Virus record (IMG/VR): IMGVR_UViG_3300004154_000014
Coordinates: 1-63,954 of that record
Strand: one strand, 5' to 3'
Length of the DNA: 63,954 bases
From: a virus
Taxonomy: Duplodnaviria > Caudoviricetes
Part shown: one piece after another, positions 9,493-59,224 of the stretch
How positions within the stretch are numbered: position 1 is the first letter of the stretch
Layout of the letters: each line of letters begins with the position of its first letter
The notes under the pieces: generated by a model
Seen by the model: only the letters and a program-made list of their open reading frames with translations
What the model was told of the DNA's origin: nothing
The model's database searches: none
Translations under genes and position numbers: made by a program

Positions 9493-9561
9493 CGTCAGGT
9501 TCCAAGGAGGGCCTAGGTCTCACCGGGCTCTCCCCTCAACTACTTGCTCCTGAAAACTACA

Positions 9562-10164
9562 ATGAACGAGCCATCCGAAACACCGAAACAACAGGAGTTG
9601 TTGGAAGCGCAGACCCAGTGGTTTCACGTCTTCAAGGCGATGATCGAGCAGGGTGACGTGGCCAAGATGGGGCCGCATGCCTTCACGGTCTATGTCGTGA
9701 TCAAGGCCCATACCAATTTCTCGACTGGCCATGCCTTCCCCGGGATTGACGTAATCGCCGAGAAATCCGGGGTCTCCGTCGCGCAGGTAAAGCGCGAACT
9801 GAAAACCCTGGAAGCAGCCGGCTACATCACCAAGGAAAAGCGTGGGCGGTCCAACCATTACATCTTGCGCGAGAAGATCAACGTCACCGACGCACATGGC
9901 CGCCCGCAAGCCGTAGCCACCTGGGACTACCTGCCCAGCAGTGTCCAGCATGCCGTGGCCGACCTGAAAAACGTGCTGGTGTCCGGTGACCTGGCCGGCG
10001 CCAAGGTCGTGCATATCGAGCGCTTGCAGGTGAACGTCACCCACCTGCATGACAACGCGATGAACTTCAACGTGCAGGAGTTCACGGCGGATCTGGAGAA
10101 GCTGCCCAAAGCCATGCGGGACAAGCTGCTGGCCAACTGGAAAAGCCAGCAGGATGACGAGTGA
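9562..10164 (+). CDS. Winged-HTH (HTH_36-like) protein, putative plasmid/phage replication initiator (Rep)
   Basis: AFTVYVVIKAHTNFSTGHAFPGIDVIAEKSGVSVAQVKRELKTLEAAGYITKEKRGRSNHY typical of initiator N-termini; followed by origin-like DNA. Confidence 0.7.
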   Translation: MNEPSETPKQQELLEAQTQWFHVFKAMIEQGDVAKMGPHAFTVYVVIKAHTNFSTGHAFPGIDVIAEKSGVSVAQVKRELKTLEAAGYITKEKRGRSNHYILREKINVTDAHGRPQAVATWDYLPSSVQHAVADLKNVLVSGDLAGAKVVHIERLQVNVTHLHDNAMNFNVQEFTADLEKLPKAMRDKLLANWKSQQDDE

Positions 10165-10172
10165 GCAGACCG

Positions 10173-10350
10173 TCAGAGTTATACACAGCTCAGTGTGATA
10201 CGTATCAGCCTGAGACTTGTCGAACCTGAATAGGTCTCACCCTGACACCAATACTCCCCGAATAGGTGTCAGGGTGAGCCCCTAAAAAGAAAGATGTAAA
10301 AGCTTAAAAAGATCGCAGCGGAGCCCTCCGGCCCCGCCACGTTATCCACA
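10173..10350. other. Putative plasmid-type replication origin (DnaA boxes + iteron-like boxes + AT-rich tract)
   Basis: TTATACACA 10179-10187 and TTATCCACA 10342-10350; TCA-N3-TGA at 10190, 10205, 10237, 10269; 14-bp IR 10236-10249/10265-10278; A-rich tract 10283-10311. Confidence 0.72.
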
Positions 10351-13300
10351 TCACTCGCTGAACAGACCCATCCCCACTTTCAGTGTGACCAGCTCGTCGA
10401 GCGACTCCGGGTATTTCAGGACGCTCCCGTTGAGCGGATTGCCGAACTGGTTGAACACATGCCCGTCCATCACCGACTGCATGCTGCTGAAATACCCTTC
10501 CAGGGTTCCCAGCATCAGCGCCTTGGCCGGGTTCTCGCGGAACATCCGCAGCAGCACCTTCTGAATCCGGATGTAGTATTTGGTGAACATCAGGATGCCC
10601 TTGTCGTTCAGGTACTGGATTACCCGATGGCTCGGGATGTCGTAGTTGATGAACGCATCGGAGACCGTCTCCACGGCCTGCTCATGGGCCATCGGCTGGT
10701 TGCTGCGCCCGACCAGGTGCTGGTAGAGCGTGTAGCGGGCCATGAAGTCCGACAGCTGGGTGCCCTGTCCGAGCAGTCGGTAGAGCGGCGTGTCGTGGGC
10801 GACGTAGAGCGTCTTGCCCAAATCCTTGACGAAGCCAGGCAGGTTGCGGGTCTTCTTCTCCAGGTAGGCCAGCGCCTGTCCCCGGTAGCTGTAGGGATCG
10901 TCCTCCACCGAGACATCCTCGACGATCGACGGCAGCAGGCCTTCCTCGATCAGCTTGCCGACCGGATTGCGCGCCAGCGCATCGCGCAGCTCCACTACCC
11001 GCTGACGCAGCTCGTCCACCCCGCCCACCAGGTAGCCGGCATCGAGCATGCTCTGCAGCTTGACCAACTCGTGGGTATCGCGCCGGTAAGCCAGCGCCCC
11101 CTGCAAGGCGATCCGGTGGTGCTTGAGCACGTCCGCCGGCGACACCCCTTCCCACAGCAGCTGCGTCAAGTTCGACTGCATGTTGCCCAGCAAGGTCAGG
11201 CCCGACTTCACCACGATGATGTCCTTGGCTTCCCCCACCAGCGTCTCGACGATGCCTTCCCCCTGGCGAATCCTTACCGCCGCCTTCTCCCCGAATACCG
11301 CCTCCCCAAACATCACCACCAGATTTTCCCAAGTCGAGCGCAGCTCCGGGTCCTTGTCGAAGGCACTCGACAGGCTCGGCTTGCGGTACCCGAACACCAG
11401 GTCCAGCAGATCGCTGCGCACCAGCATCAGGTCTTCGCCCCACACTGCCCGGATCTTCTCCTTGGTCTGCTGAGGCAGCATGATCCAGGCCTCCCTGGCT
11501 TCGCTGTCGGGGCTGGTCGGGCTGACCTCCACATAGGCTTCCGGACGCTCGGCATATTCCTTGAGGTACTGCTCATGCAGAGCCTCCACCGTGCGATCGT
11601 TCTGCTCGCGCCCGCTCTCCTTGTCGAACAGGTTGCCGGCCATCACCCCGAGCACCTGGTCCATGGTGTCGGTGCGCTCGAGCAGTCGATCCTTGTTCTC
11701 CTCGCTCATCATGTAGCGGTAGTTGACCACCTGCCCCTGGGCATTCACGACCGGCAGCATTCGCCGCTGGGTCGACTTACCCGGATGGTAGGCCTCGCTA
11801 GCGGCGAACAACGCCGCGATCTCCTGCGCACGCTGGCGTGCCACTCGACCGTTGAGGCGAGTGCGGTACTTGCTCGGCTGCTCGGTAAGAAACGAGTTGA
11901 CCCCGCTGTGCAGCTCCCGCCCCCGGGTCTTGTCACCGGTGAAGGAAATCACCCCCGACTGGTAGGCCTGGGTACCGCCGTGCTTGAGCACATGCACATA
12001 CCGCAGGGCCTGGTCGGGATCGGCCGGGTCGACATGCACCGGATGCTCCAGGCGCACGTACCCGGACGCCACCAGCTGGTCAGCCACCTGCCCACCAGCC
12101 ACTTGCAGGTCGGTGTTGGGATTGAAGATTTCCGGTACGAAGCCCTGCAGGCGCAGCGCCTCGCTGCCACCGAACAAGCGCTGGGCCGACTGCTTCTGCA
12201 GCTCGCGGTGAGTCAGCAGGGTCAGCAGCGCACCGTTCTCGTTACCTCGTGCCAGCTCGCTGTTGAGCACCTGCCCGGCCATGGCCCGGTAGGCCATGTC
12301 GGTGTAGGACAGCGCCAGCAGGGCCTGCAGGCTGTCTAGCGCCGGTACCGCCAGCTCGACCTCGGCCTGAGACAGCTTGCCGGCCCGGGGCGTCCCGGCC
12401 AGGCTGGCGATGTTCAGGGTGTTGCTCATCACATGCGGCCCGACCACCAGCCCGGTGGCCTTGTAGTAGGCCAGGTCCTTCACCTGCCGAATGTAGTAGC
12501 GCCCCATCTGCCCGAGCTTGCGCACCCGTGCGATGTGCTCGGCGAGGGTCTTCTCGAGTTCCTGCGGATCGTTGATCAGCCGGGCGATGCCCTCGATCCC
12601 GTAACCGTCCAGCAGCGCCTGCAGATCGGTACGCAGCAGCACCTTGCTGAGCGCCGTCTTGTGCTCGCGGGTGAGGTCCTCGCCCTCGTTGGCATAGCTC
12701 TCGGCGATCAGCTTGCTCACATCGCCGATGATCCCCTTGCGCTGCTGCTCGAGCTGCTTGGTCACCCGCGACAGGGTGTAGGCATACTGCGTCGCCTCGC
12801 TAGCACCCCTGGTTTCGTTGACCAGTCCGGCCACCACGCCCAGGCGTCCCGGGAAGTGGGCATCGCGCAGCCGCTGCAAGCCGTCCATCAGGTAGTTCAG
12901 TCGCGCCGGCGCCGCTGCCCCCGGCAGCTTACCCATCACCCGGATGATGCCCTGGCTGGATTCGCGGAAGAACTTGGTCTTGCCGAGGGTCTCCAGATGG
13001 CTGCGCACTTCCTTGCTGGCACTTTCCAGCAGGCTGTCGAAGCGATCGGCCAGGGTCCCCTGGCTGCGCTGCATCAGGGCGTAGCGGCGCTTGGCCTCGA
13101 TGTCCACCAGCTGGTCGACCAGGTTGCCCAGGCGAATGTCCTGGCGCTCGCCGGCCGAGACGTTGGCCAGCTTGTTGCCGAGCCCATCGAGCAGATCCTC
13201 GAACAGGCTGCGCAGCTTCTCGAACCAGCCCATCGCCGCCCAGTCGCGTACCGCCACCTCGGCCGTCAGCTGGCCCATCTTCGCTTGCAAGGGCTCGTAG

Positions 13301-16300
13301 ACCAGCCCCAGGGCGACGAACCGGGCCAGGTAATCCGACCGTCCCTTGCTGCCCGCCGAGGCCTTGAAGACGAAGTCCCACTGCCCCTGCGCCGTCTGCT
13401 TGGCCACCGGCGAAGCCAGGAACCAATCGCCTGCGTAGAAGTCCTCTGGCTTGACCTGCTGGCGCGCTTCACGAAACAGCTCCTGCAGGCGGCGGTAGGC
13501 CACGCTCGATACCCCGTTCTCCTGCTCCAGGGCCGCCTTCACGGTAGCCTCGACCTGCTCCAGTACATAGGCCTCGGCTTCGCTGAACGGCAGGCCGGAA
13601 GCCAGGGAAGCACTGGCGAACGGCAGCTGCCCGGTGTACAGGGTCTTGAGGTAGACATCGGTCGGGGTCAGCGCCTGGTTCTGCTGACGCTGGACCTTGA
13701 AGCTACCGAACGGTCCATGCAGCTCGGTGACAATGCCATCGAGCAGGCCAAGCAGTCGCTCGCGGCGCGTCCCGTTCAGAACGGTCTGGCCGTACTGCTC
13801 GAGCGCTTCGAAGATTTCCACCGTGCCCAGCTCCAGCGCCGCCGTAGCAGCCTGGGCCGAAGGGCTGGCCATTGCCAGGGTGCGTACCCCGACCGCCGGC
13901 CGCAGCGAGGCCTCCTTGTAAAGTCCGGAGACGTTCTTGACCAACAGGGCCATCCCGGTCTTGTGAACCTTCTGCGGCGACAGCCCGCTGCCGGCGAAGA
14001 GCAGATCGATCAGCGTGCGGATGAAGGCGTTCACCCCGGTGATCAGCGAGTTCTTCGCCGTCGACTGGTTGAGGGTGATCCGCTTGAGCACCTGCTCCTG
14101 GAAGTCCTGGTTGGTCATCCCCCAGGCGACCAGCTCGTCGACATTGGCCACCGCCGGCCCGAACTGGTTGCCCAGTCCCTGCTCGTTCACGTAGGCCGCA
14201 GCCTTGCGGCGGATCTCCTCGAGGTTGCGTACCAGCTCCCAGACCTGGGGAGAACTGCCGTCCTGGCCCCGTTGGATCACTCCGGCGATCGAGGCGTGGA
14301 CCAGTTCGTGGAGCAGCAGCTCGGCGTTGATCCCGGCATGACGGAACTGTGCACCCTTGACGAAGATTTGCCCTTGGCCGTTGCGCACCTCGTACCAGCC
14401 GCGGAACCCGGTCACGCCCTGGGACGCGCTGACCGTCGGATCGGTGGCCGGTGTCACGTAACGTACCGTCAGGTTGCGGTCGATCACCTTGGCCACTGCC
14501 TTGAGCAATTCGGCATTGGCACCGGTCAGCCGGCCCTTGAGCAGACCCATGACCCGACCCACCGGCATCTCCGGCTGGGCAGCGAGCGCCTGCTCGAGTT
14601 CTGCATCGACCTCGAACAACGGCGTGCCCAGCTCGCCCCAGTGATTGACAGCCTCCCTGGCTTGCTCGGTTACTGCCTGCAGCACGTAGGCCGCTTCCCG
14701 GGGCGCCAGCACTTCGTTGGCTGCCGTCTCCAGCGCCTGGTTGTGCTCGAGCATCTGCTGCTGAACCTCGACCACCCGGGCCTGGACCTCGGTCAGGACA
14801 TTCGGTGCCCGAGCAGCTGCCGCCACTGCAGTCACCTGCGGCACGCTGGCCGGCGCCTGTATCGGGACCGCCTGGTCTTCCTGTAGCTCGGTCGAGGCCT
14901 CTACTGGCCTACCTGGCAGCAGGGCATCCAGCTCGGCAGCCTGCAGGCGCATCGATTCCCGCACCTGGGGCGACAGCTCGGCCTGCAGACGGCGGGCCTC
15001 CTGGCGCTGCTCTTCGGTGACCTCGTAGGCACCCCCTTCGAACGCATACTGGTCGACGATCGCCAGGTTGGCGGCGTTGTCCAGCTTGGCCCATTGGGCG
15101 TCGTAGGCCATCCGAGTCACCCGTTGCAGGACGAACTCCGCCGGCCCAAGGCCGCTGTTGACATACTCCTCCACCACTTCCTTGCCCATCCGGGTCATCA
15201 CTGACTGCAGGGCTGCGGCCATCGACTCGCGCAAGCCAGGAGAGTTATCCCGGGCCAGCAGATCGAGGGCACCCACGATGCTGCGCTCCCAGACCTCCTG
15301 GATTTCCAGCGGACCCGAGTAGCCGATCAGACGGTCGTAGAGGCTGGCGTTGTAGGCCCGCGCCATCTCCTGCATGCGCCCCACCCCGGTACCGCCGGCA
15401 TCATGCAGGTTGAGCACGTCCATCTTGCCGTAGACCCCCACCGCCGTAGCGCTGTCCAGCGAGTGGGTATCGAGGATCATCGGCGACACGCCGGGACTCT
15501 CATCGCCCCGGGCAATCCCCGAGAAGCGGCCAGTGGAGAATGCCGAAGGCTTGCCATCCATTCCGGTCAGCGCCAGCTCGCGGCCAAACTTGGTCTCGAT
15601 GCTGTAGGCCAGATCGTCGGTCAGGCTGGTGCCCCGCTTGGTCAGGTACAGCCCCGACGCCAGGTTGTCCGAAGCACGCGACATCGCAGTGTGCAGGACC
15701 GGCGCCAGCTTGCTGAGCTGGTTGCGGATGTCCTGGTCCTGCTGGCGAGTGATGTCGTGGATCGGCGTCGGCTGCTTGTCCCGGATCACCGTCTCGATAC
15801 CCTTCCTGGCTTTGTCGCGGTAGTGCCGGTAGGCCCCGTCGAACAGCCCGAAGGCTGCCTGGGCCGTCTGGTTGAACACATGCCGGCGCTCGATGAACAC
15901 CGCGAAGTTGCCCCGCAGGGTATCGGCGACGCTCACCCCGACGGTATTGACGAAGACATTGCGCAAGGCTGCGACCTGCTGGGGCGACAGGCTGAACTCC
16001 ATCGCCTGTTCCAGGGTCATCGCCGTGTCGAGCTTGGCCGACTTGTGCTTGGCCTGGGCCAGCAGCAGATTGACGGTCTCCAGCAATGGCCGGAGCTTGG
16101 TCGGGTCTCCCCCGTTGGCCAGCTTCTCCAGGTTCACGTAGAACTTGTCGACGAACTCGTCGGCCATGTTGCTGATCGCGTTGTCGATCCCCGACCCGAA
16201 GACCATCGCCGTCAGCGGGGTCTTGATCATCTTGCGGCCATCCGAGGTGACCTTGCCGTCGCTGTCGTTGTAGGGCTTGCCGGTCAGCCGGTAGATCCCC

Positions 16301-19300
16301 TCGAGCATGCTGCGCAGGTTGGGGCTCTGCTCCACCATCCGTTGCAGGCCTTCATTGACCTTGGCGATCGTGGCCTCGTAGAGATCGAGGTTGCCGCCCT
16401 GTCCCCGCCAGAGGTTGTAATTGCGGGTACCGTCGGTCAGCGAGTAGAAGCCACCCCGGTTGAGGGTCTGGAAGCTCGCCGCCCCCATGGCGAACAGGCT
16501 GAGCATCGGCCCGTTGGTAACCCCGTCGACCTCGCCCATCATCTGCACGGTGAAGGTCTTCTGCCCGGTGGCCTTGGCCTGGGCATAGTGGACCAGCCCG
16601 ACCAGTGCATCGAAGCTGTGGAAGTTCTCTCCCCCCTTGGCCACGGCCAGGCGAATCCGGTCCTGCTCGGCAGAGGTCAGCTCGCCTTCCCCGTACAGAC
16701 CCTTGCGCAGCGCCGAGACACCGGCGCGGATCACCGGATCGGCCAGCAGGCCCTGGAGCTTTTCCAGCGACTCAAGGTTGGCCATCTTGTCGGTCTTGAT
16801 CCCCAGACCCTCGGCCACCTGTAGCTTGAAGCCCTCCATCGAGGCCTCGTCGTCTACCGTGATCTCGGTCTCCCAGTCCTTCATGTAGAGCATGTGCCGA
16901 TGTACCTTGCTCGTCTGCGGATTGACCAGGTTGGTCTTGAACCCTACCCGCTGCGGCTTCCAGACGCTGGTCTCGAAGTACATGCCGAACCCGATGTCGT
17001 CCTCGCTGTCGCTGGTCAGCTGGTGCACGAAGTCGTCGAAGTTCTCGATCTGGCGCAGCAGGTCGTCGTTCTTGGCGATCGTCGAGGCGCGATGCTCCTT
17101 GTGCAGCTGCTTGCCATCGACACCTACCCCGCCAGCCAGCTCCAGAAGAGTCTGCCGGTCAAGCTTCTGCCAGAGCTTCCAGTTGTCCTGGCGGACGAAG
17201 AAGGGCGTGGACTGGACCTTCTCCAGGGCCATCGCCAGTTCCTGGGGCACCTCCTGGTTGGTCCGCTTGGCGAACTGCTGGGTGAAGGGAATCGGCTCGA
17301 AGCTCGGCTCGATCATCCCGTCCTCGGTGCCGAACAGCTTGCCCAGCACACCCTGGGTACCGACGCTGCTCTTGTAGATCGAGGTGGCCAGCTTGCTGGC
17401 TTCCCTGGTTCCCGGCTCGCGGGCGATGCGCAGGAAGTACACCCGACGCTTGCCGACCTCTTCCCACTCCTTGGCCGGGCGCTGGGCCTGGGCTTCCTTG
17501 GTCAGCGTGAAACGGTCCAGGGTGGCCTGGGATACCTCGCTGCGCTGGACCAGCTTCTGCTGCACCAGCAGGGCCATCACCTGGGCACCCAGCGCCTGCT
17601 CCAGACGGGACTGCTCGTTGACGAAGGCATTGGCCTTGGGTTGCAGACCGAGCGCTTCCATCACCCGCTGGCCGAACGAGAGCACGGCGAGCTTCTCCCG
17701 GCTGCCGACATGCCCCAGAGCAGCAACCATCGCCGGGGTGACGTAGGCATCGTCGTCACGCCCAAGGATGGCGTTGATCTCGTCGGCAGTGTTGGATGGC
17801 TTGCTGGCGTTCTCGGCGACCCAGCTGAATGCCGCATAGCTGATCGCCGTGGCCAGGTTCTCGTCGATCAAACCGTTCTCGTCGAGGAAATCCTGAATCG
17901 GGTCCTTGTAGTTGTGCTCGCGCTGGTTCGCCGGGCGCTGGAACAGGTTGGCCTGGATCTCCTGGCGCCAGTCGCCGGCCAGCTCGCGGAACTTGCCGAT
18001 CACCCCCAGCTGCTTGTCGTCGGGCGCAAAACCGAGGAAGTCCTCGAGGATGGCCCGACCTTCGCGCAGGGCACCGAGGAAATCGCCCACCGAAGCCAGG
18101 GGACGCAAGGTGGCGGCGTTGGCCCTGCCGGCCCGCTGCTCGAACTGCTGGGCGGTACGGTTGCCAGTGCGATAGTCCAGTCCGCTGTCCCGCTGGAACA
18201 GGGAGAGAGTTCCTTTCCTGGTTTCCGCCGGAGCGTCTCCTACCGGCTGCTCCTCCACAGGCGTAGATTCGACCGGAGACTGGTCCAGTACAGCAGCCAT
18301 CTCGCCAGGCACTGCCTCGGGTACCAGCGGCGCAGGGGCTTCTGCGACAGGGGCTTGAACGGATTGCTCAACGGCCGGAGTTGCTACCGGCACCGGCTCA
18401 ATCCCGGCGGCCGGTGCTTGTGTCGCCGGGATCTCCTGGGCGGGAACAGCACCGGCCGCCGGGACAGGCTGGTCCGGTACCGAAGCTGCCGCCGGCGCGA
18501 ACACCACATCGAAGCCGGCCTGCAACTCACGACTGGCTGCCCGCAACGCTTGTGCCTCGGCAACGATCCCGTCGACCAGTGGTCCGCTGCGGGCGCCGAT
18601 CTCCAGTCCCCCGTTGGCACGCAGCTCTTCCCGGCTCAGGGTCAGAGGCGCGATCTCCCACTGGCCGTTGCCGGCCGAGGTCATTTGCAGGCTTTCCCCG
18701 GAACTGCGTGCCTGCCGATAGGCCTGCACCGCCTGGCGGGCCTTGACCGAATGGACCTGGGCGAAAGTGCGCAGACCATCGATCTGAGTGCGTGCTGCTG
18801 CCGGGTCGCCGGACGAGACCGCCTGACGGAAGCCAGACCGGTAATCGGAAATCCCTAGGTAGCCCTGCTTGCGGTTACCCAGCAGCACATCCTGGTTCAC
18901 TCCCTGCAGACCCTTGGCCTGGTTCTCCGCCTGTCGGCTGGACGAGAGCATCCGCAGGTACTGGCGCTGGGGCGTGCTCAGGCCATTGGTTTCGTTGTCG
19001 GCCAGCTCGCTGAGCTGGGTATCGCTGAATGCTCCCGGGCTGCGCATTGCCAGAGTGATGACCTGGTCAGTAGCTTGCTGGCGTGCCTCCGGGGCCACCT
19101 CGCCTTCCGGTGCACTGACCTGCTGCAGCAGCCCATCCATCTGCTCGGAGGAAGGACGCACCAAGGCTTCCATCCGGGCGCGCTGCTCGCGGGCGACGCT
19201 CAGGCTCTTGTCCAGGGCAGCGACTTCCTTGCGCTGCTTGGTGGCATCGCCGGCAGTCTTCCGGTGATCGTCCAGGGTTGCCTTGACCAGGTCGATCGAC

Positions 19301-28372: not shown

Positions 28373-28384
28373 GAGAGATACCTA

Positions 28385-29895: not shown

Positions 29896-29961
29896 GGAAG
29901 TTCCTTGGTTCAACGAATGGCGCGACCCTAATACAGAACTAGGGCCGCATGCACATTTTTC

Positions 29962-32121: not shown

Positions 32122-32166
32122 CCGCGGCTGATTAATGCCGCAATACTACTGACCCTTGGAGAGTTC

Positions 32167-32589: not shown

Positions 32590-32608
32590 TTCCTATCGAG
32601 GGTAATCC

Positions 32609-33037: not shown

Positions 33038-33067
33038 AACGACAGCCCCAGGGATGGGGCCATTACA

Positions 33068-33511: not shown

Positions 33512-33573
33512 TGCGCTCTTTCCATGAGGGGAGGCGGTCATGGTAGCCAAGCCCTCCCCTCCACCACAACGCC

Positions 33574-34287: not shown

Positions 34288-34293
34288 GGGACC

Positions 34294-38867: not shown

Positions 38868-38912
38868 TGGTGTGGCGTGCGCTCGTGCATGCCTGAAACC
38901 AGGAGACAGACA

Positions 38913-50955: not shown

Positions 50956-50974
50956 GGTCTCATCAGGAGCTTCC

Positions 50975-53056
50975 ATGCGTCATCTGTCCTTCAAGGAATC
51001 GGCTACCTACCCGGTCGCCCTGCTGCTCAAACCCAACGCCTTCCTCCAGTCCGAAATCCTCCGCCACTACGGCGAACCCCTGGCAGCCGCCGGCATACCC
51101 CTCGACGATCTGATCGCCATGACCCTGGACAACCCGTCCGAGGGCAAGCTGACCGTGAAGTTCGCCAAGGAGTATGCCGACAAGCTGCTCCAGGCCCTCG
51201 ATACTGTGGACACCCGGCTGCTCTATTGCACCGACGCTACCTACTTCAAGGTGCTCACCAAGCAGACCAAGGCCGAGCCCCACCTGGGCTATGCCCTGCC
51301 CTGTGCCCTGCCTGGCTTCGAACACATGCAGGTGGTACTGGGCATCGGCTACCCGAGCCTGTTCTACAACCCGGCGCTGTCAGCTAAGCTCGACCTCTCG
51401 CTCAAGGCCTTGGTTGGGCAGTACGCTGGCAACTACCGACCACCGGGAGAGGGCATCATCCACCACGCCGAGTACCCCGCGAGCGTGGTGGAGATCAAGG
51501 CGGCACTGGACAAGCTGCACCAGTACCCCTACCTGGCAGCCGACATCGAGGCATTCAGCCTCAACCATTGGCTGGCTGGGATCGGCTCGATATGTTTTAC
51601 GTGGAACACTCATGAAGGCCTGGCCTTTCTGATCGACTACGTACCCCTCGCCGAGCCGGTTTGGGACAACCCCAAGAAGCAAACCACCGGGCAATTCGGC
51701 CAGCAAGTCTTCAACCCCGAAGTGCGTGCCCTGTTGCGTGAATTCTTCGAGACCTACCGGGGCACCTTGCGCTGGCACCGGGCAAGCTTCGACCTCAAGG
51801 TACTGATCTACCAGCTGTGGATGTCCTCGATCGACGATACCGCCGGGCTGCTACGGGGCCTGGAGGTGATGACCCGACACTTCGACGACACCCTGGTGAT
51901 CACCTACCTGGCCACCAACAGTTGTGCTGGCAACGAACTGGGCCTGAAAGCCAATGCCCACGAGTTCGCCGGCAACTGGGCCAACGAGGAGATCAAGGAC
52001 ATCCGGCGGATCAAGCCAGGTGAGCTACTGCAGTACAACCTGGTCGACGGCTTGTCCACCAACTACGTCTTCGACAAGCACTACCCGACCCTGGTCGCCG
52101 ACCAGCAGGAGGAGCTTTACCAGGGCTTCATGAAAGACAGCTTGCGGGTGCTGATCCAGACCATGCTGACCGGGATGCCGGTCAAGCCGGCGCGGGTCCA
52201 GGAGGTCAAGGAGATCCTCGAGACCAAGCGTGACGAGCTGTTCGACAGCATCGTCGCCAACCCCCTGGTCAAGGCGCTCAATCTGGTGTTCCAGAAGAAA
52301 GCCCAGGAGGCCGCCAACGCCAAGCTGAAGGTCAAGCAACACCCACTGGAACATTTCAGCGGCGTGATCTTCAACCCGGGCAGTCCGCAACAGGTTCAGT
52401 ACCTGCTCTACGAGCAGATGGGCCTGCCGGTGCTCGACAAGACCGACAGCGGGCAGCCGTCCACCGGCGGCGATACCCTGGCCAAGCTGATCCACCACAC
52501 CGAGGTGCCAGCCTACAAGGCGGTGATCCAGGCCCTGATCGACCTCTCCGGGGTGGTCAAGATCCTCTCTTCATTCATCCCGGCGCTGGAAGGTGCGGTG
52601 CCGATCCCGGGCACCGAGTACGCCCTGCTGTTCGGTAACTTCAACCTCGGCGGTGCGGTCTCCGGCCGGCTTTCCTCCTCGGACCCCAACCTGCAGAACC
52701 TGCCGGCCAAAGGCCTCTGGGGCAAGCTGATCAAGTCCTGCTTCATCGCTGCCCCGGGCTGGCTGTTCGCCGGATCAGACTTTGCCAGCCTTGAGGACCG
52801 CATCAACGCCCTGTTGACCAAGGACAGAAACAAACTGCGTGTGTACACGGATGGGTTCGACGGCCATTGCCTGCGAGCCTTTGCTTATTTTCCTAGTGAG
52901 TTGCCTGGGATAACCCAGGCCCAAGAAACTGATCGCTGTTTCCGGATCACGATAAAGGGCCAAACTTTTCTATGTAAAAGTGGGGACTTTATTATAACCT
53001 CAGCGGGAGAGCACATTCCAGTAGAGCAGTTTTATGATTCCTATCAAAGAGTATGA
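50975..53056 (+). CDS. Family A DNA polymerase, N-terminal fragment (3'-5' exonuclease + motif A)
   Basis: AADIEAF exo I, YNLVDG exo III, SGRLSSSDPNLQNLP, GSDFASLEDRI, DGHCLRA; ends before motif B. Confidence 0.92.
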   Translation: MRHLSFKESATYPVALLLKPNAFLQSEILRHYGEPLAAAGIPLDDLIAMTLDNPSEGKLTVKFAKEYADKLLQALDTVDTRLLYCTDATYFKVLTKQTKAEPHLGYALPCALPGFEHMQVVLGIGYPSLFYNPALSAKLDLSLKALVGQYAGNYRPPGEGIIHHAEYPASVVEIKAALDKLHQYPYLAADIEAFSLNHWLAGIGSICFTWNTHEGLAFLIDYVPLAEPVWDNPKKQTTGQFGQQVFNPEVRALLREFFETYRGTLRWHRASFDLKVLIYQLWMSSIDDTAGLLRGLEVMTRHFDDTLVITYLATNSCAGNELGLKANAHEFAGNWANEEIKDIRRIKPGELLQYNLVDGLSTNYVFDKHYPTLVADQQEELYQGFMKDSLRVLIQTMLTGMPVKPARVQEVKEILETKRDELFDSIVANPLVKALNLVFQKKAQEAANAKLKVKQHPLEHFSGVIFNPGSPQQVQYLLYEQMGLPVLDKTDSGQPSTGGDTLAKLIHHTEVPAYKAVIQALIDLSGVVKILSSFIPALEGAVPIPGTEYALLFGNFNLGGAVSGRLSSSDPNLQNLPAKGLWGKLIKSCFIAAPGWLFAGSDFASLEDRINALLTKDRNKLRVYTDGFDGHCLRAFAYFPSELPGITQAQETDRCFRITIKGQTFLCKSGDFIITSAGEHIPVEQFYDSYQRV

Positions 53057-53747
53057 AGTGCAATACACCATTGCTGAAAATGGTGATGTCACCCGTAGGG
53101 AAACAGGGCGGATACTCCGCCCTAGTCTCAATAAGCAAACAGGTTATCTGTATGTTGGGTTGTGGAAGCACAACATTGGTAAGACGTTTGCTGTACATCG
53201 GCTGGTTGCTGAGCATTACATTTCCAATCCAGCAAACAAACCTTTCGTCAATCACAAAGACAGTATAAGAACCAATCCGCACAAGGATAATCTGGAATGG
53301 TGTACTCAAGGGGAAAATATACTCCACGGGTATGCCCAAGGATTCATGAGCCAGGAGAATCGCCGGAATTTCAAAGACTTCGAGTTGGATCTGCTTCTTC
53401 AATCCGTCCTTGCTGGAGAGACTATGACAACTCTCGCATCGGCTGCTGACGTGGGCTTAGGGCGACTGACGATCAACTTGCGTAAATATGCGGATACTGC
53501 TGGATTACTTGAAAAATTTCTGGAGGAGTTGTACCGACAAAAGTGTGAAAGGAACGCGCAGGCCAACGTGAATAAACGCAGACCTATTCTGCAGTGGACA
53601 ATCCAAGGCACTCTAGTATCGGAGCATGAAAGTGCAACAGCTGCTGCTAGAACTCTGGGGCGTTCTTCTGCAGGTTCTATATTCAATGCCCTTAATCCCG
53701 GTAAGACTCAGCAGAAGGCTTTTGGTTACTTATGGACATTCAAGTAA
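53034..53747 (+). mobile_element. Free-standing HNH homing endonuclease inserted in the DNA polymerase gene
   Basis: VHRLVAEHYI..VNHKDSIRTNPHKDNLEWCTQGENILH; NUMOD-like C-terminus; AT-richer than genome; overlaps both polymerase fragments. Confidence 0.9.
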
Positions 53748-53860
53748 ACGGTGACTTCTCAATAGAAGAAGTCACCACAGATATATTCAACGTCTTTCAA
53801 ATTAACCGGATTAAAAAGGAGTATGGGGCTCTTCGAGATGAATCGAAGAGCCCCACTTGA
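53732..53860 (+). CDS. DNA polymerase middle fragment (42 aa, first half of motif B)
   Basis: Manual translation MDIQVNGDFSIEEVTTDIFNVFQINRIKKEYGALRDESKSPT-stop; not in ORF track (<60 aa). Confidence 0.8.
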   Translation: MDIQVNGDFSIEEVTTDIFNVFQINRIKKEYGALRDESKSPT

Positions 53861-54537
53861 CTTTCCTCCTTACCTACGGAGGTTCCTGGCGCGGCTTGAT
53901 GGCCAACCTCGGCTGGCCCAAAGAGAAAGCCCTGCGTATTGAGGCCAACTACCACGCGCTGTACGTCGAGTCCGACGAGTGGGTGAAAGCCAAGATCGAC
54001 GAAGCCGCCCGGCTGGGTTACGCCACCTCGGCCTTTGGACTGCGCATCCGGGCACCCTTGTTGACCCAGACCCTGCGGGGGAGGGCCAAGTGTCCCCATG
54101 AGGCGGAAGCCGAAGCCAGGACGCTTGGAAATGCCATCAGTGGCCAGTCCTATGGCCTGCTGACCAACCGGGCCGCCAACGCCTTCATGGCCAAGGTCTG
54201 GGCCTCGCCCTACCGGTTGGACATCCTCCCCGTGGCGTTCATCCACGATGCGATCTACCTGCTGATCCGCAGCCGTCCGGAGATCGTCGAGTGGGTTAAC
54301 CGCGAGCTGATCACCGAGATGCGATGGCAGGAGCTGCCGGAGATCACCCATGACCAGGTCAAGCTGGGCGCCGAACTGGACTTGTTCTATCCCAGCTGGG
54401 CCTACCCGGTCACCCTGCCCAACGGTGCCGATGCCGCCACCATTCTCGAACGCTGCCAGGCCCACCGGGACGAGCTGCACGAGAAGGGTGTTTTGCCTGC
54501 TTTACCCACGAAGAAAACCCCCATGTCTACCCCCTGA
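53857..54537 (+). CDS. DNA polymerase C-terminal fragment (second half of motif B + motif C)
   Basis: TFLLTYGG, RTLGNAISGQSYG, FIHDAIY. Confidence 0.9.
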   Translation: MTFLLTYGGSWRGLMANLGWPKEKALRIEANYHALYVESDEWVKAKIDEAARLGYATSAFGLRIRAPLLTQTLRGRAKCPHEAEAEARTLGNAISGQSYGLLTNRAANAFMAKVWASPYRLDILPVAFIHDAIYLLIRSRPEIVEWVNRELITEMRWQELPEITHDQVKLGAELDLFYPSWAYPVTLPNGADAATILERCQAHRDELHEKGVLPALPTKKTPMSTP

Positions 54538-54582
54538 CTGGCGTCCTGTATGGACGCAGAAATACCCTCAAGGAACCCCGCC

Positions 54583-54918
54583 ATGAAAGAAGTTTCCGCC
54601 CTGCGTGCTGTCTCCGTTTTGCTGATCGCTGCGGCTGCCGTCGCCATCAGCGCCCAACGGGCCAAGGCTGCCGACACCCTGCCGATCCGCAACGCCCAGA
54701 TCGTCGACACCGCCCATGAAAGCTGGCTGGTGGCGACTCTGGTCAACACCACCCAGACCATACTCGATCACCCGGCCGTCACCTTCACGGTCGATGGCCA
54801 GCAGGTAGTGGTCGCCGGCCCGACGCTGGAAAGCGGTCAGGCCTGGCGCATCCGCCACCGCCTCGAAAAGAAACCCCAGGCGCTGACCGGCGCCTATGCC
54901 ACCTACGAAATCCGGTGA
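54583..54918 (+). CDS. Putative exported protein
   Basis: Signal-peptide-like N-terminus ending AKA-A; beta-rich mature part. Confidence 0.65.
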   Translation: MKEVSALRAVSVLLIAAAAVAISAQRAKAADTLPIRNAQIVDTAHESWLVATLVNTTQTILDHPAVTFTVDGQQVVVAGPTLESGQAWRIRHRLEKKPQALTGAYATYEIR

Positions 54919-54999
54919 GGAACCACTATATGCAAGGTCACCACACCAAGGCTCGGCTTCGCCTGCGAGGCGTTCCGCTCAAACCAGGGGAAAAAATCG

Positions 55000-55317
55000 A
55001 TGGGTCCTGATGATCTGCTGGGCTACCTAAGCCCGCAGCAGATCCGCCAGCTGCTCGATGCCGGCGCCGTGAAGCTGCTCTACACCGTCTGCGAAAACCC
55101 TAAGCACCTGGGCGACATCTCAGTCATGCACTGGTTTGACCGGAACGACATCGAGATCGCCCACCAGACCGCCCTAAACAATCCGATTTTCTACCGCCGC
55201 TCCTGGGGCGGATGGGTGGATAATCGACCGGGCTATCGACGGTCCTACCGCTGGAACCTGTTCGTCGACAGCCCGGAAGAGCTATCGGATGCGGCGATCT
55301 CCTACCGCGTTGTCTGA
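55000..55317 (+). CDS. Hypothetical protein (possibly frameshifted from ATG 54930)
   Basis: 105-aa ORF; upstream RBS+ATG at 54930 is out of frame across GGGGAAAAAA. Confidence 0.55.
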   Translation: MGPDDLLGYLSPQQIRQLLDAGAVKLLYTVCENPKHLGDISVMHWFDRNDIEIAHQTALNNPIFYRRSWGGWVDNRPGYRRSYRWNLFVDSPEELSDAAISYRVV

Positions 55318-55393
55318 ACCAAGCTGGACACCACCGCCCAGCCGTCCATAGACTGCTAAAGACCCGCGACTACTTACAGGAGAGGGCCACTCG

Positions 55394-55651
55394 ATGACCT
55401 CTGAGAACTCTGAACTCGACCACGACCACATCGTCGCTCAAATAGCGAAACTCATGGCCGAAACCGGCAAGCTGAACTCCGAGAATGAAAAGCTCCGCGA
55501 GGAGTCGCGCAAGCTGAACGCCGAGCACGAGAAGCTGCAGGCAGAAGCCCTGAAAATAACCAGAGAAACCTTCTGGTATCCGATGGCCATCGCCAGCGCG
55601 CTGGTCGGATCTGTGGCCGGGATCACCCTCGCCTTGAGCAAGCTGATATGA
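55394..55651 (+). CDS. Coiled-coil protein with C-terminal TM
   Basis: IAKLMAETGKLN heptads, WYPMAIAS hydrophobic tail. Confidence 0.7.
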   Translation: MTSENSELDHDHIVAQIAKLMAETGKLNSENEKLREESRKLNAEHEKLQAEALKITRETFWYPMAIASALVGSVAGITLALSKLI

Positions 55652-55890
55652 CCGAAGACGTGCGTTCCGCCCAGATCCACCAGGCGTATGACGCGCTGGA
55701 AGATGAGCTGCCGGGCTATCTGGTCACCATGCTCAAGCTGTTCTGCCTGCGGGAGCTGATGGGTGACTCGATGCACCAGGAGCTTGAGGCGCTGATCAAG
55801 GGCCTCGACGAAGACGGAGAACTGGAGGAGGGGGTTGCCGATAGCGCCCTGCTCCTCATCGAGGGCCTTCCGCTCCCTACCACCCCCTGA
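55648..55890 (+). CDS. Hypothetical acidic protein
   Basis: ATGA overlap. Confidence 0.6.
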   Translation: MTEDVRSAQIHQAYDALEDELPGYLVTMLKLFCLRELMGDSMHQELEALIKGLDEDGELEEGVADSALLLIEGLPLPTTP

Positions 55891-55903
55891 CCCCGAGGAC
55901 CCT

Positions 55904-56140
55904 ATGCAAGCCTTCAAAATTGTCGCCAATACCGAAGTTCCGGAAGCGGTCGGCGAGACCGTCAACCTGAACACCTATCTGCAGGGGTCGAGCTACTTCA
56001 GCGCGATCCTTCACAATGACGAGGTGCCCGGTCGGCTCGCCGGGGCTAAAGCCCACCTGCAGGAACACTTCGGGGCCTGGTGCCAGGCACGGATCACCCT
56101 ATCGGCGGTGGAGTGCGAGATCGAGCCGAGCGATCCCTGA
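55904..56140 (+). CDS. Hypothetical protein
   Basis: GAGGA RBS; followed by terminator. Confidence 0.6.
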   Translation: MQAFKIVANTEVPEAVGETVNLNTYLQGSSYFSAILHNDEVPGRLAGAKAHLQEHFGAWCQARITLSAVECEIEPSDP

Positions 56141-56169
56141 CGTCCGTCCCATTACACCTGCTGTACCGG

Positions 56170-56194
56170 AACCCGCCCGCGTGGCGGGTTTTTT
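56170..56194 (+). terminator. Rho-independent terminator
   Basis: AACCCGCC..GGCGGGTT + T-run. Confidence 0.8.
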
Positions 56195-56308
56195 CTGACC
56201 GCTTGACGGCTTTCCATCAAATAATGCCTGGTTAGCGCCAACTTTCTGAATTTGTCCGACTGGGCATATCCTCCCCCTAACTTACCGATTTACCCAAAGG
56301 AGAACTGC

Positions 56309-57205
56309 GTGAAATCGAAACTTGCAATCGGCTTTTTCGTTGCCGGCATGACAGGCGCCGGCCTTGCACTGGCCGCCCCCGATACCCGGGATATGGTCAA
56401 GTCCATCCAGACCCAGGGCTGGTTCAAGACCTGCCCGGGCATCATGGCCAGCCTGAGCGCCATGCCGGAACCGTCCGACCATGCCAGTGATACCTGGCGT
56501 GACTTCGTGCTGCTGCGCGCCGGCTGCCTGACTGAGGAACACCGGGAAGTCGAGGCGATCGCCTTCGTTAAGTCCCGGATGGCAGCCACTGGCCGGCGCG
56601 ATGCGAACCTGCTGAACTTCCTCGGAATCAGCCAACTGCGTGCCGGCAAGGACCAGGAGGCCATCGCCAGCTTCGAGGAAGCCCTGCAATACGGTGTCCA
56701 CGACCTCACCAAGAAGGCGATCTACAGCAAGATGGCCGGGGCCTACACTAAGATCGCCAGCCAAACCGGTAGCCGCGACCCTGAGCTGATGGCCAAAGCC
56801 GAGCAATATGGCCAACTCGCCGTCGACCACAACACCGGTCGTGGCGATCCGAGCATTTCCGCCCAGCTAGCGACCATTAAGGCACTGCGCGAGGACTATG
56901 CCGGGGCGATCCGCCTGTTCGACGATGCCCTGGCCCGCAACACCGCCTACCCCCACTGGAAATCGGAGAACATGCGCAAGGTCATGCAGGCCGAGTTCAC
57001 CATGGGTAAAGGTCAAGCGCTGTACAACCAGGGCGCCAAGACCCAAGGAGCTGCGCTGATGGCCCAGGCTGTCGAGATCGCTCCGACCGACAACCTCAAG
57101 ACCGTGATGAGCGCTTTGCGCGAAGTCACCCTCAACCCAGTCCCGGCCGGGCAACTGCCCGAGATCCTTTTGGTACCCTCTGTTCCTCTCGATGAAGACG
57201 TATAA
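56309..57205 (+). CDS. Exported TPR-repeat protein
   Basis: AAGGAG RBS + GTG; signal peptide ending ALA-A; TPR-like LLNFLGISQLRAGKDQEAIASFEEALQY and EDYAGAIRLFDDALA. Confidence 0.78.
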   Translation: MKSKLAIGFFVAGMTGAGLALAAPDTRDMVKSIQTQGWFKTCPGIMASLSAMPEPSDHASDTWRDFVLLRAGCLTEEHREVEAIAFVKSRMAATGRRDANLLNFLGISQLRAGKDQEAIASFEEALQYGVHDLTKKAIYSKMAGAYTKIASQTGSRDPELMAKAEQYGQLAVDHNTGRGDPSISAQLATIKALREDYAGAIRLFDDALARNTAYPHWKSENMRKVMQAEFTMGKGQALYNQGAKTQGAALMAQAVEIAPTDNLKTVMSALREVTLNPVPAGQLPEILLVPSVPLDEDV

Positions 57206-57215
57206 GGAAAGCTCT

Positions 57216-57380
57216 ATGAAAAAATTGTTCGCTGCCTCCTTGCTGCTGACCGGTCTACTGGTCAGCACCATGAGCATGGCCGGCTACCAGTCGGCGATGA
57301 TCCAACGGTGCGATGCAGTGGGTCACTGCTACGTGGTCAATGAACCCTGGGATACCAACCCGCCGCCCTGCTGGATCTGA
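57216..57380 (+). CDS. Small exported peptide (54-aa precursor, 3 Cys in mature part)
   Basis: AAGGA RBS; MKKLFAASLLLTGLLVSTMSMA signal peptide; followed by terminator. Confidence 0.72.
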   Translation: MKKLFAASLLLTGLLVSTMSMAGYQSAMIQRCDAVGHCYVVNEPWDTNPPPCWI

Positions 57381-57398
57381 TTTAAAGGATGGTCCACC

Positions 57399-57425
57399 AA
57401 GCCCGCTTGCGCGGGCTTTTTTTTT
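57399..57425 (+). terminator. Rho-independent terminator
   Basis: AAGCCCGC-TTGC-GCGGGCTT + long T-run. Confidence 0.85.
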
Positions 57426-57439
57426 GCCTGGAGAAATAT

Positions 57440-57859
57440 ATGTGCAAGATCACCACCGCCATGCTGGTCGTCAGCCTGGGCAAGATCGCGTATCACCGGA
57501 TGGACACCGGCCAGATCAACTTCCCCGAGGATCTGGGCATCCCCCTCGATCGCTTCCTCGGTGGCTGCCTGATCGCTGCAGAAGCTGCTGGCGACCTGCT
57601 CGACCAGGTGGTCGACTAGGACAGCTACCATGCCCTGCCCGAGACCGGCTGTTTCAGCTACGACCTCCTCAAGGTCGGTGTGCTCGATGAGTCCCATCCA
57701 GAAAGCTGGTCAGCCCACACAGACCTGGCCACCTACCTGAGCCTACACCTGTCACCAACCGACTGGTACTCGCTGGCCGAGAACCATCGAGTACCGCAGG
57801 GACTCTGTCATCACACCACGGCCTGGCTGTGTGCCCGCGGCATCCCCTTGAAACCATAG
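57440..57859 (+). pseudogene. Hypothetical gene with in-frame amber at 57617-57619
   Basis: GGAG RBS + ATG 57440; frame stays open 79 codons past TAG to TAG 57857-57859. Confidence 0.55.
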
Positions 57860-57878
57860 AAGATAATCGAGAAGGTTT

Positions 57879-58150
57879 AACCATGAATTAATTGAACATG
57901 AACCATGATTCACCAGTACACGAACCATGATCTAGTGAGCCATGACTCTCATGGAATCGTGATTCAGTAGATCATGATCATGTGATTACTGGTTTCATGG
58001 TTCATGTAACAATTGTTCATAGATCAGTAGTTCATGGTTCATGTTTCACGGATTGGCATTCCCTTAAACACGAATTCATGAGCCGGTGAGTCATGGTTAG
58101 GGGTTCAATAACTATGAGTTCATGAGGTAGCATCTCATGGTTCATGATCT
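57879..58150. repeat. parS/parH-like centromere array (AACCATGA / TCATGGTT, CATG-core repeats)
   Basis: Many copies, direct in the left half and inverted in the right half, AT-rich, immediately upstream of parA; further copies at ~59141-59156. Confidence 0.8.
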
Positions 58151-58165
58151 CGTACAGGACCACAC

Positions 58166-58810
58166 ATGATCACAATCATCGGGAGCAACAAGGGCGGGGC
58201 AGGGAAGACCACCACGGCCACCAACATCGCTGTTTGGCTAGCCAAACAGGGAAAAGAGGTATGCCTGGTCGATGCTGATCCGCAGCGATCCGCCTGCCAG
58301 TGGTACGCGGAACGTGAGGATGCTGGAATTGAGCCAGCAATCATCCTGATCGAGCGCCGGGACAATATCTCCAGTGCCCTCAAGTCACTCGGCGAAAAAT
58401 ATGCCCACGTCATCGTCGACGTGGCGGGCCGGAATAGCCGTGAGCTGATCACCGGCGCTGCTGCTGCAGATCTGGTCATCGCCCCGCATCAGGCCAGTCA
58501 GTTTGATCTCAACACCATGGCCGAGCTACAGGAGCAGATCATTCGAGTCCGAGACCTTAACCCTGATCTGCGGGTCCTGGCTTACCACACCATGGCCAGC
58601 ACCAACCCTTCCGTTCGTGAAACTGAGCGGAAGGAGTTCCTGACCTTCATAGCCGAGATCCCCGAGATCGAGGTGATCAATGCGGTCGGCTACTACCGCA
58701 AGGTCTATCGGGATGTGATCGTCACAGGGCGGTCGGTCATCGAGTCCGACAACCCAAGCGCCGTCGCTGAAATCGAAGCTCTTTGCCAGGAAGTATTCCC
58801 CCATGGTTAA
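58166..58810 (+). CDS. parA: ParA (type Ib, ParF-like) partition ATPase
   Basis: Deviant Walker A KGGAGKTT, LVDADPQRS, VIVDVAG; 214 aa with no N-terminal HTH. Confidence 0.93.
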   Translation: MITIIGSNKGGAGKTTTATNIAVWLAKQGKEVCLVDADPQRSACQWYAEREDAGIEPAIILIERRDNISSALKSLGEKYAHVIVDVAGRNSRELITGAAAADLVIAPHQASQFDLNTMAELQEQIIRVRDLNPDLRVLAYHTMASTNPSVRETERKEFLTFIAEIPEIEVINAVGYYRKVYRDVIVTGRSVIESDNPSAVAEIEALCQEVFPHG

Positions 58811-59147
58811 ACCACTCAGCGCTCGCGCAAACGCAAAACCTACCCTGGACCAGGACAAGCTGGAGAAGCTGACTACCGAGCTGGTCGACCGGCCTTTCGG
58901 CGGAGAGGTAAGCCAGAAGGAAAATTCCCTGGTCCTCGAGGTCAAGTCCGAGGCCTCGGCTCCAGAACAAAAGACGGAGAAGCCGGCACGGGTCAAGCGC
59001 CGATCGATCACCATCAGCCTTCCCGAATCGCAGATCGTTGCGCTGGAATATGCGGCTGTAGAGAACAAATATGCCGCCGGCAATGAGCCGTCCACCGTCA
59101 GCGCCATCATTTCGAAAGCATTGACCGACGCTGGCTACAAACCATGA
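58803..59147 (+). CDS. ParG-like small centromere-binding partner (putative RHH)
   Basis: Overlaps parA end; low-structure N-terminus + RSITISLPES..TVSAIISKAL ribbon-helix-helix-like C-terminus. Confidence 0.72.
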   Translation: MVKPLSARANAKPTLDQDKLEKLTTELVDRPFGGEVSQKENSLVLEVKSEASAPEQKTEKPARVKRRSITISLPESQIVALEYAAVENKYAAGNEPSTVSAIISKALTDAGYKP

Positions 59148-59224
59148 ACCATGAATTACGGTATCGTGATCTACCAGAACAGGAACCATTAGAGTTTTTC
59201 TAGTACACCTGGCCGTACCGCCCG

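Follow-up and report, generated by a model that had tools for sequence, protein, structure and literature searches.

Phages of the N4-like family are considered to have a strictly lytic life cycle, which is why they are preferred in phage therapy, and lysogeny in this family has, to our knowledge, so far been proposed only from integrases in uncultured genomes. The IMG/VR virus record IMGVR_UViG_3300004154_000014, analysed here over its whole length of 63,954 bp (the window), raises the question of whether such a phage can also be carried as a plasmid. Besides N4-like phage genes, it contains a gene for an HTH_36 winged-helix protein followed by a candidate replication origin (9.51-10.35 kb) and a partition (par) cassette comprising ParA, a small partner protein and repeats (57.88-59.25 kb). 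Phage structural genes were thus found on one replicon with plasmid replication and partition genes, as in phage-plasmids, and we consider the record a credible candidate for an N4-like phage persisting as a plasmid.

The gene map of the window was obtained by tblastn against phage Ab09, Pantoea phage G19 and Acinetobacter phage Ab2712. Together with profile matches, it confirmed the statement of an earlier reading of this DNA (the original prediction) that the N4 hallmark genes for virion RNA polymerase (vRNAP), RNA polymerase II (RNAP II), capsid, portal and terminase occur together. The vRNAP (3,516 aa; 10351-20901, minus strand) is 34% identical over 3,436 aa to the gp50-like protein of Ab09, and the two RNAP II subunits are encoded on the plus strand (gp15-like, 39660-40628; gp16-like, 40715-41971). 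The structural block (26972-35919, minus strand) contains the genes for capsid (26972-28372), a gp57-like protein, portal (29962-32121), a gp67-like protein and TerL (34294-35919). Genes for gp24-, gp25- and gp37-like proteins, DNA polymerase, gp42, primase, gp44 and single-stranded DNA-binding protein were also mapped. TerL matched 483 phage records at E ≤ 1e-10 and is 67% identical to that of Litunavirus phages of Pseudomonas aeruginosa. The traits of the Schitoviridae are present, namely a giant vRNAP and a two-subunit RNAP II, N4-type capsid, portal and terminase in N4 gene order. Judged by these homologies, the window is most of an N4-like phage genome, related to Litunavirus and closer to uncultured, integrase-bearing relatives.

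The predicted ParA and small partner with centromere-like repeats at 57.9-59.2 kb proved to be part of a complete cassette with repeats on both sides and a terminator. Upstream of parA, a centromere-like or operator array (57879-58142) consists of three direct copies of AACCATGA at 22-bp spacing, followed by four inverted copies and additional degenerate ones. This octamer occurs 10 times in the window, nine of them within 57879-59154, while 1.47 copies would be expected window-wide and none of 100 shuffles reached 10. The parA gene (58166-58810, plus strand) encodes a type Ib ParA of 214 aa without an N-terminal DNA-binding domain and with a KGG..GKT Walker A motif, as seen from profiles and homology. 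It matches PF13614, CbiA, MipZ and phrog_164 and, over its full length, the NCBIfam model NF041546 (ParA_partition) with 133.9 bits, which is under the equivalog cut-off of 180. Among solved structures, ParF of plasmid TP228 is the most similar (full-length alignment, E 6.5e-13); in sequence databases, the nearest proteins are ParAs encoded on Azotobacter and Pseudomonas plasmids, with 66-73% identity over 99% of the length.

The partner gene (58803-59147, plus strand) overlaps parA by 8 nt and encodes a protein of 114 aa that is a candidate ParG-like centromere binder of the ribbon-helix-helix (RHH) type. It is 35-40% identical to the product of the gene located directly downstream of those plasmid parA genes, which is annotated as RHH or CopG, and 54% identical over 37 aa to the equivalent open reading frame (ORF) of phage G19. 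No match to the partner was obtained in Pfam, PHROG or PDB (ParG included), and a word-index search for homologues returned only the protein itself; its single-sequence structure model was poor (pLDDT 60.7), with a beta-alpha-alpha topology at the C-terminus. A second set of repeats, two tandem copies of AACCATGA, lies at the partner stop codon (59140-59154, plus strand), and the operon ends with a terminator-like hairpin of an 8-bp GC stem and T6 (59224-59249, plus strand), which was recognised by folding and sequence and was not listed by a consensus terminator scan. The related plasmid pA7J1 also bears short repeats directly upstream of parA, in its case a different heptad array. By its sequence relationships, the locus is a complete, plasmid-derived type Ib partition cassette. 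It belongs to a 4.8-kb segment between the DNA polymerase gene and the ORF o59319 (54538-59318, plus strand), which otherwise contains small ORFs and a gene for a tetratricopeptide repeat (TPR) protein (56252-57205); Pfam scans of the small ORFs around the cassette gave no useful match. In a DNA search of the phage collection with the par region, only G19 was matched.

For the other locus, a Rep-like helix-turn-helix (HTH) gene with a DnaA-box/iteron origin had been predicted at 9.5-10.35 kb. The gene is real and lies on the plus strand (9562-10164); an ORF on the minus strand (9520-10050) matches no family. The plus-strand gene encodes an HTH_36 winged-helix protein of 200 aa (PF13730, E 1e-10), a candidate iteron-binding replication initiator. 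It matches phrog_28562, a family for which the function is not known, with E 2e-35, and its N-terminus gives weaker matches to PHROGs of phage replication initiators (E 1e-10 to 1e-3) and to DnaD-like ones. The structure model comprises one winged helix and a short helical tail (pLDDT 67).

The gene is flanked by two exact copies of the iteron-like 11-mer TAGGTCTCACC, one in its 5′ leader (9514-9524, plus strand) and an identical one at 10231-10241; a two-copy 11-mer is in itself weak evidence. The motif AGGTCTCACC was considered as a window-wide operator and rejected, as exact copies are restricted to the two positions flanking the gene and no excess was found at one mismatch. Downstream of the gene, the following elements are arranged on the plus strand: a DnaA-box-like sequence TTATACACA (10179-10187), which occurs at the same position after the gene in three homologous loci (L015, L018, L022); four iteron-like sites found by repeat search and alignment (10188-10201, 10202-10216, 10228-10249 and 10260-10281), the last two of which are spaced by 32 bp and constitute an inverted pair of 14 bp; and an AT-rich element with 78% A+T, CTAAAAAGAAAG...CTTAAAAAGAT (10282-10313), which is a candidate DNA-unwinding element and is kept after the iterons in seven of nine aligned loci. 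Next come a GC-rich hairpin with a minus-strand T-run (10314-10341), which serves as an intrinsic terminator for vRNAP on the minus strand and is partly conserved with L022, and a perfect DnaA box TTATCCACA (10342-10350, plus strand), which abuts the vRNAP stop codon. The two boxes at 10179 and 10342 are the sole matches to TTATNCACA in the 63,954 bases, whereas a looser test that allowed one mismatch anywhere found no excess (8 boxes versus 6.28 expected). A DNA search of the phage collection with the rep/ori region gave no match.

The region 10165-10350 was at first viewed as a mere convergent terminator zone with chance DnaA boxes, because there was no excess of one-mismatch boxes and no long iteron array, and because this convergent gap, which separates the middle operon from vRNAP, carries a clear terminator of the latter. 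This view was dropped after a comparison across loci, which supported the predicted origin: the same layout is found after homologous HTH_36 genes, and DnaA boxes are enriched there. The protein has 766 homologues at E ≤ 1e-5, and loci with flanking DNA were compared from IMG/VR (n=5), from genomes (n=7, of which three full-length ones were used) and from plasmids. Within 260 nt past the stop codons of 11 HTH_36 genes (2,860 nt), 14 TTATNCACA boxes were counted, distributed over seven of the 11 loci. The rest of the same loci contains two boxes in 241,779 nt, from which 0.024 would be expected downstream versus the 14 observed. In seven of nine aligned loci, the order is DnaA box, iteron-like sites (consensus AATAGGTnTCACCnnTGAnACC) and AT-rich element (CCCTAA...AGA...CTTAAAAAGA), and palindromic arrays of 3-5 sites at a spacing of ~32-33 bp were found in L013, L017 and L019. 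As read from these sequences, the layout is the anatomy of a DnaA-assisted iteron origin beside its initiator gene.

The homologues also link the HTH_36 gene to partition genes. It is the third gene of a ParA-small-HTH operon in the Acinetobacter plasmid pRBH2-3, in the Polaromonas plasmid pA29BJ2 and in L017 and L019, and in L015 a parA gene adjoins it. In three cases, the operon is followed by iterons at ~32-33 bp and DnaA boxes (L013, corresponding to pA29BJ2 3514-5340; L017, 8892-10760; L019, 8900-10740). Plasmid pA29BJ2 is a 104-kb catabolic plasmid and not a phage; PLSDB assigns no replicon type to it, and no other replication initiator is present among its listed features, the feature table being incomplete. 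The operon resembles a module for replication and partition that has so far escaped annotation, with its genes ordered (ParA, partner, initiator) as in repABC replicons. As a lead only, a RepC domain occurs in 25% of the members of a neighbouring Atlas cluster.

The IMG/VR record is identical to the window, so that there are no flanks to inspect. It is classed as 'linear' with a CheckV completeness of 82%; its 5′ end lies inside a ribonucleotide reductase gene and its 3′ end inside an open ORF. Exact copies of the ParA, partner, HTH and alginate lyase proteins were each found on three contigs in JGI/IMG, the longest of which has 77,847 bp. A contig of this length also carries a TerL from the same 90% cluster. 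According to these matches, the full genome comprises ~77.8 kb, of which ~14 kb are absent from the record. A metagenome scan with the last full ORF for the ~14 kb or for a sibling record returned only distant fragments, and an exact 40-mer scan of viral contigs for a sibling record gave no match.

How unusual the two cassettes are was determined with 82 N4-like IMG/VR loci (1.0 Mb), consisting of the best 80 of 186 gp44 relatives and two polymerase relatives. From these loci, 16 contigs of at least 60 kb were taken as the near-complete set, 14 of them at least 90% complete. The original prediction had named rep and par genes being common in lytic N4-like phages as evidence against itself. What was found is the opposite: PF13614 (ParA type), with the window as positive control, and PF13730 (HTH_36) are each present in 0 of the 16 near-complete relatives, the 82 loci contain neither an HTH protein homologue nor a homologue of any ParA among the four used as queries, and the HTH gene is absent from all 42 loci spanning gp44 to the vRNAP 3′ end. 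In the phage collection, ParA matches 110 records, and among the best 60 of these 110 the sole N4-like one is G19, Ab2712 being found by local search; the HTH protein matches five phage records, one of them N4-like (Ab2712).

A precedent exists in Acinetobacter. The sole N4-like record among 72,556 PLSDB plasmids is plasmid pRBH2-3 of A. baumannii RBH2 (NZ_CP110465; 75,126 bp, circular). Of 40,471 nt compared between this plasmid and phage vB_IME_Ab2712 from hospital sewage (OK149216), 38,668 nt match with ~99% identity. The N4-like element is therefore known in two forms, as a phage isolate and as a circular plasmid. An article by Ambrose et al. (2023, in Plasmid) reportedly deals with strain RBH2 and may already describe the element.

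Among these relatives, integration is the common feature. The tyrosine integrase PF00589 was detected in 13 of the 16 near-complete contigs at E ≤ 0.001, 10 of them above the Pfam cut-off. Profile searches found neither a tyrosine integrase nor a serine recombinase in the window, in agreement with the original prediction that no integrase is visible. In the relatives, the integrase lies 2.1-5.6 kb downstream of the DNA polymerase gene in four of them (G006, G008, G010, G011) and between DNA polymerase and gp42 in G013, and in these five and G003 it falls 2-10 kb downstream of the polymerase, which in the window is the region of the par-bearing insert. The contig G003 (74,640 bp, classed as provirus) is the nearest relative that is collinear with the window, with 78% identity for the major capsid protein, 69% for TerL and 68% for primase; its integrase of 395 aa with an arm-binding domain is located at the contig end, and endolysin and holin genes are at the opposite end. 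The interval from polymerase to o59319 measures 4.8 kb including the par cassette in the window versus ~790 bp in G003. From this comparison, the arrangement looks like a swap of an integrase for a partition cassette in one variable region.

The sequence anatomy, the homologies, the conserved origin layout, the rarity among relatives and the precedent element are what is directly seen, and on these grounds the best-supported reading, which we hold with slightly more confidence than doubt, is that the phage persists as a plasmid prophage or long-lived episome in place of integration. It presupposes functional cassettes, a way of silencing the phage and the absence of an integrase from the genome. 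The phage would have acquired two self-contained plasmid modules, the iteron replicon (9.51-10.35 kb) and the type Ib partition cassette (57.88-59.25 kb), whose most likely use would be to keep an unintegrated phage genome in dividing cells. At the origin, the host replisome would be brought in by the HTH_36 initiator, with no need for the polymerase of the phage. Binding to the AACCATGA arrays would be the task of the partner, and segregation of the copies that of ParA. With more doubt than confidence, we put forward the further proposal that the window represents a phage-plasmid type not described before in N4-like phages, derived from a normally integrating lineage in which the integrase was swapped for a DnaA-dependent iteron replicon, with an initiator from an HTH_36 family not annotated until now, and a ParF/ParG-type par locus. 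Bolder still is a proposal on silencing. In N4, solely the injected virion RNA polymerase can use the early promoters, and this enzyme is in turn encoded by a late gene. A phage copy residing in the cell could accordingly be silent even with no classical repressor, which would explain why no repressor was found.

Several observations weigh against plasmid persistence. Regarding the initiator, the HTH_36 protein falls in no curated Rep family in profile searches, fold and profile searches with it gave only generic proteins with a winged helix (PerR, ArsR, MarR; TubR with E 1e-3; AspA with E 0.03), and databases name its homologues only as HTH, ArsR or MocR regulators. For these reasons, a role as an operator-binding regulator or centromere binder is possible, while a claim for centromere binding drawn from the TubR and AspA matches was discarded as these are too weak. 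Regarding the origin, there are only four short sites and no long array of regular iterons, the terminator region of vRNAP overlaps with the second DnaA box, and DnaA boxes are missing from the 260 nt scanned in four homologous loci (L016, L023, L026 and pRBH2-3). Some homologues are also found in integrated contexts, with an integrase beside L026 and an AlpA-like gene beside L022, and some adjoin capsid genes. No sigma-70-like promoter was found ahead of the rep/ori or the par cassette, and the window contains no multimer-resolution recombinase. A repressor-type gene of the HTH_3 or S24 families is likewise absent from the window, and no regulator family was found in the accessory ORFs, ~18% of the genome being unseen. 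The integrase position syntenic to that of G003 is beyond the ORF o60642, within the missing ~14 kb; an integrase may thus be present in the full genome, because that of G003 falls in the equivalent stretch.

The source of the DNA and the assembly of the par segment also belong to these points. The original prediction had proposed to look for a circular contig from a bacterial isolate; what was found is the linear record and DNA from three freshwater metagenome runs (possibly the source of the record itself), with no isolate run. In the Logan contigs of the three runs, positions 54000-63954 are covered by three pieces: one of 55,771 bp ending at 55801, one of 3,459 bp (55773-59231) with the TPR gene and the par cassette, and one of 4,722 bp (59203-63924). 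The par segment is therefore a separate unitig, bounded by branch k-mers, which also occur at the window end. Its depths in the three runs are 43.3, 78.3 and 89.4 versus 38.5, 78.1 and 85.8 for the one neighbour and 39.7, 76.3 and 86.8 for the other. As its depth tracks the backbone and the 77,847-bp contig is shared, a chimera is unlikely, though possible. Two observations on the ends may be added: the par terminator stretch 59203-59276 (74 nt) is common, with three differences, to an 847-bp contig of equal depth, and the last stretch of the record, 63895-63954, is at ~1.7x depth. Both stretches are probably repeats with other copies in the missing part.

The explanation that competes best is an integrating temperate N4-like phage whose integrase is encoded in the missing ~14 kb, with rep and par as accessory genes that stabilise the excised or not-yet-integrated genome, or as cargo from a host plasmid. 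It is favoured by the tyrosine integrases in 13 of 16 near-complete relatives and by the provirus-classed G003, whose 395-aa arm-binding integrase has its syntenic position in the missing part. The interval 2-5.6 kb past the polymerase, which holds the integrase in G006, G008, G010 and G011, is nevertheless present in the window and holds par and no integrase. Since ParA and HTH_36 are found in none of the 16 relatives of the integrase lineage, the cassettes fit better as a replacement than as an addition, and we judge this explanation unlikely.

Lower still in probability, and in our view improbable, is a lytic or at most pseudolysogenic phage with recently captured plasmid DNA, in which the cassettes might have no prophage role, might serve transient carriage in slow-growing cells or might interfere with resident plasmids of the same incompatibility. 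The Litunavirus phage Ab09 was maintained as a pseudolysogen for several passages without such genes, according to PMC6467409, and virulent SPO1-like Bacillus phages carry partition genes, with no plasmid state reported in the main text of PMC7969092. The G+C content of the par region (0.553 in the 58-60 kb bin) is below that of the backbone, no repressor was found in the window, and both G19 and Ab2712 were isolated from sewage as phages. However, both cassettes are intact, with genes of full length and the cis sites that go with them; passive cargo would hardly account for two independent maintenance functions in the same genome, and the Acinetobacter element was recorded from a purified clinical isolate in the form of a closed circular plasmid. 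A mis-joining by the assembler of the par segment (55773-59231) from a co-occurring plasmid would agree with the separate 3,459-bp unitig, the ~1.5-1.9x k-mers at 55772-55802 and the 74-nt stretch common to the 847-bp contig, but is very improbable in view of a par depth within 0-12% of the backbone over three runs differing ~two-fold, the occurrence of ParA, partner, HTH protein, alginate lyase and same-cluster TerL all on a 77,847-bp contig, and the existence of complete N4-like genomes with par loci (G19, pRBH2-3).

The remaining genes of the window were examined as well. Plus-strand genes occupy 36963-63954 and continue at 1-10164, and the minus strand is used from 36656 down to 10351. The original prediction had noted lesions in several genes and had taken them to fit a plasmid lifestyle. 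This was confirmed only in part, with breaks in two genes. DNA polymerase, which is unsplit in G003 (897 aa), is encoded by two ORFs (50897-53056 and 53857-54537, plus strand) with a NUMOD4/HNH endonuclease gene between them (53034-53747), and the C-terminal part of a class II (B12-dependent) ribonucleotide reductase (2-1333), which is cut by the record start, is distributed over two successive ORFs (2-574 and 620-1333). At 7.7-9.3 kb, the frames that overlap were not retained as gene breaks and look instead like long high-GC ORFs. As the polymerase split is a homing-endonuclease insertion, the link between lesions and lifestyle is unsupported, and so is an intron in the polymerase gene, because an Rfam scan of the window matched none in the split gene. 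Rfam and tRNA scans of the whole window gave no match at all. The TPR-repeat protein gene (56252-57205) shares its 3,459-bp unitig with the par cassette. In the early region, a protein (38877-39656) with DUF4326 fused to a YspA/SLOG-type domain is encoded. The alginate lyase (61690-62385; PF08787, E 2e-33) is probably a depolymerase and hints at an alginate-producing host. Based on this enzyme and on the plasmid affinities of the par genes, the host is probably an alginate-producing Pseudomonas or Azotobacter.

If plasmid persistence holds true, it would be a second persistence route for the N4-like family, would add a podovirus type with an unusual transcription scheme to the phage-plasmid field, and would bear on the practice of calling phages 'obligately lytic' from the absence of an integrase. 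Beyond this phage, the comparison points to an unannotated replicon family characterised by an HTH_36 initiator together with DnaA boxes, an AT-rich element and iterons spaced by 32-33 bp, often with the gene order ParA, partner, initiator. Its members are seen on plasmids, on viral contigs and on chromosomal islands, and the family is open to typing and direct testing.

In the literature search, no description of an N4-like phage-plasmid and no paper on Pantoea phage G19 was found. Lysogeny was proposed for some N4-like viruses by Zheng et al. 2023 (PMC10654107) on the basis of integrases, proviruses, transposases and diversity-generating retroelements; these viruses belong to the same broad uncultured lineage as the window, and the main text of that study is without the words 'plasmid' and 'partition'. 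The main texts of Pfeifer et al. 2021 (PMC7969092) and of the tyPPing paper (PMC12977533) contain no N4-like type and few podovirus phage-plasmids, while their supplements may list singletons; virulent SPO1-like phages with partition genes are treated there as doubtful. Pseudolysogeny of the Litunavirus phage Ab09 was reported by Latino et al. 2019 (PMC6467409).

Compared with known systems, the nearest counterparts of the window are pRBH2-3 and Ab2712, in which an N4-like genome likewise encodes ParA and a small partner, together with an HTH_36 protein showing 43% identity to that of the window. In contrast to the window, their three genes form one operon on the opposite strand, the ParA is 35% identical over 120 aa, and the host belongs to another genus. 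Furthermore, pRBH2-3 has no DnaA box in the 260 nt after the HTH gene and possesses a serine recombinase (L010, 4215-4847, annotated as 'recombinase family protein') with a possible multimer-resolution function, for which the window has no counterpart. Pantoea phage G19 (PV483189) is also N4-like and shares a ParA with 59% identity, an overlapping partner, which in G19 is of the RHH type, and repeats on both sides. The G19 par locus is, however, found on the opposite strand between RNAP II and the gp24-like ATPase, and an HTH_36 homologue is lacking in this phage. This sewage isolate (L007/L008) additionally carries an annotated SpoVT/AbrB-MazF/PemK toxin-antitoxin pair and a UmuD-like protein, which are plasmid- or SOS-like.

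Among plasmid partition systems, ParF-ParG-parH of TP228 and par2 of pB171 resemble the cassette in their small Walker ParA, which lacks a DNA-binding domain, and in a small partner of the RHH type, as predicted for that of the window. ParF of TP228 is the archetype of type Ib systems, and pB171 par2 has short repeats upstream and downstream. The window differs from both in its own repeat motif AACCATGA and in a partner without sequence match to ParG. Iteron plasmids with DnaA boxes are represented by pPS10, RK2 and P1 oriR; like the window, such plasmids have an initiator gene beside iterons, an AT-rich stretch and DnaA boxes, whereas the putative initiator of the window consists of one winged helix with a short helical tail and belongs to no curated Rep family. 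Finally, the phage-plasmids P1, D6, N15 and SSU5 and the parABS-bearing cluster A mycobacteriophages share with the window the combination of phage genes with plasmid replication and partition genes, and are, unlike the window, myo- or siphoviruses with known repressors. The ParA of D6 is 42.5% identical to that of the window, and ParAs of cluster A mycobacteriophages match it as well. In the mycobacteriophages, swaps of an integrase for parABS occur among close relatives.

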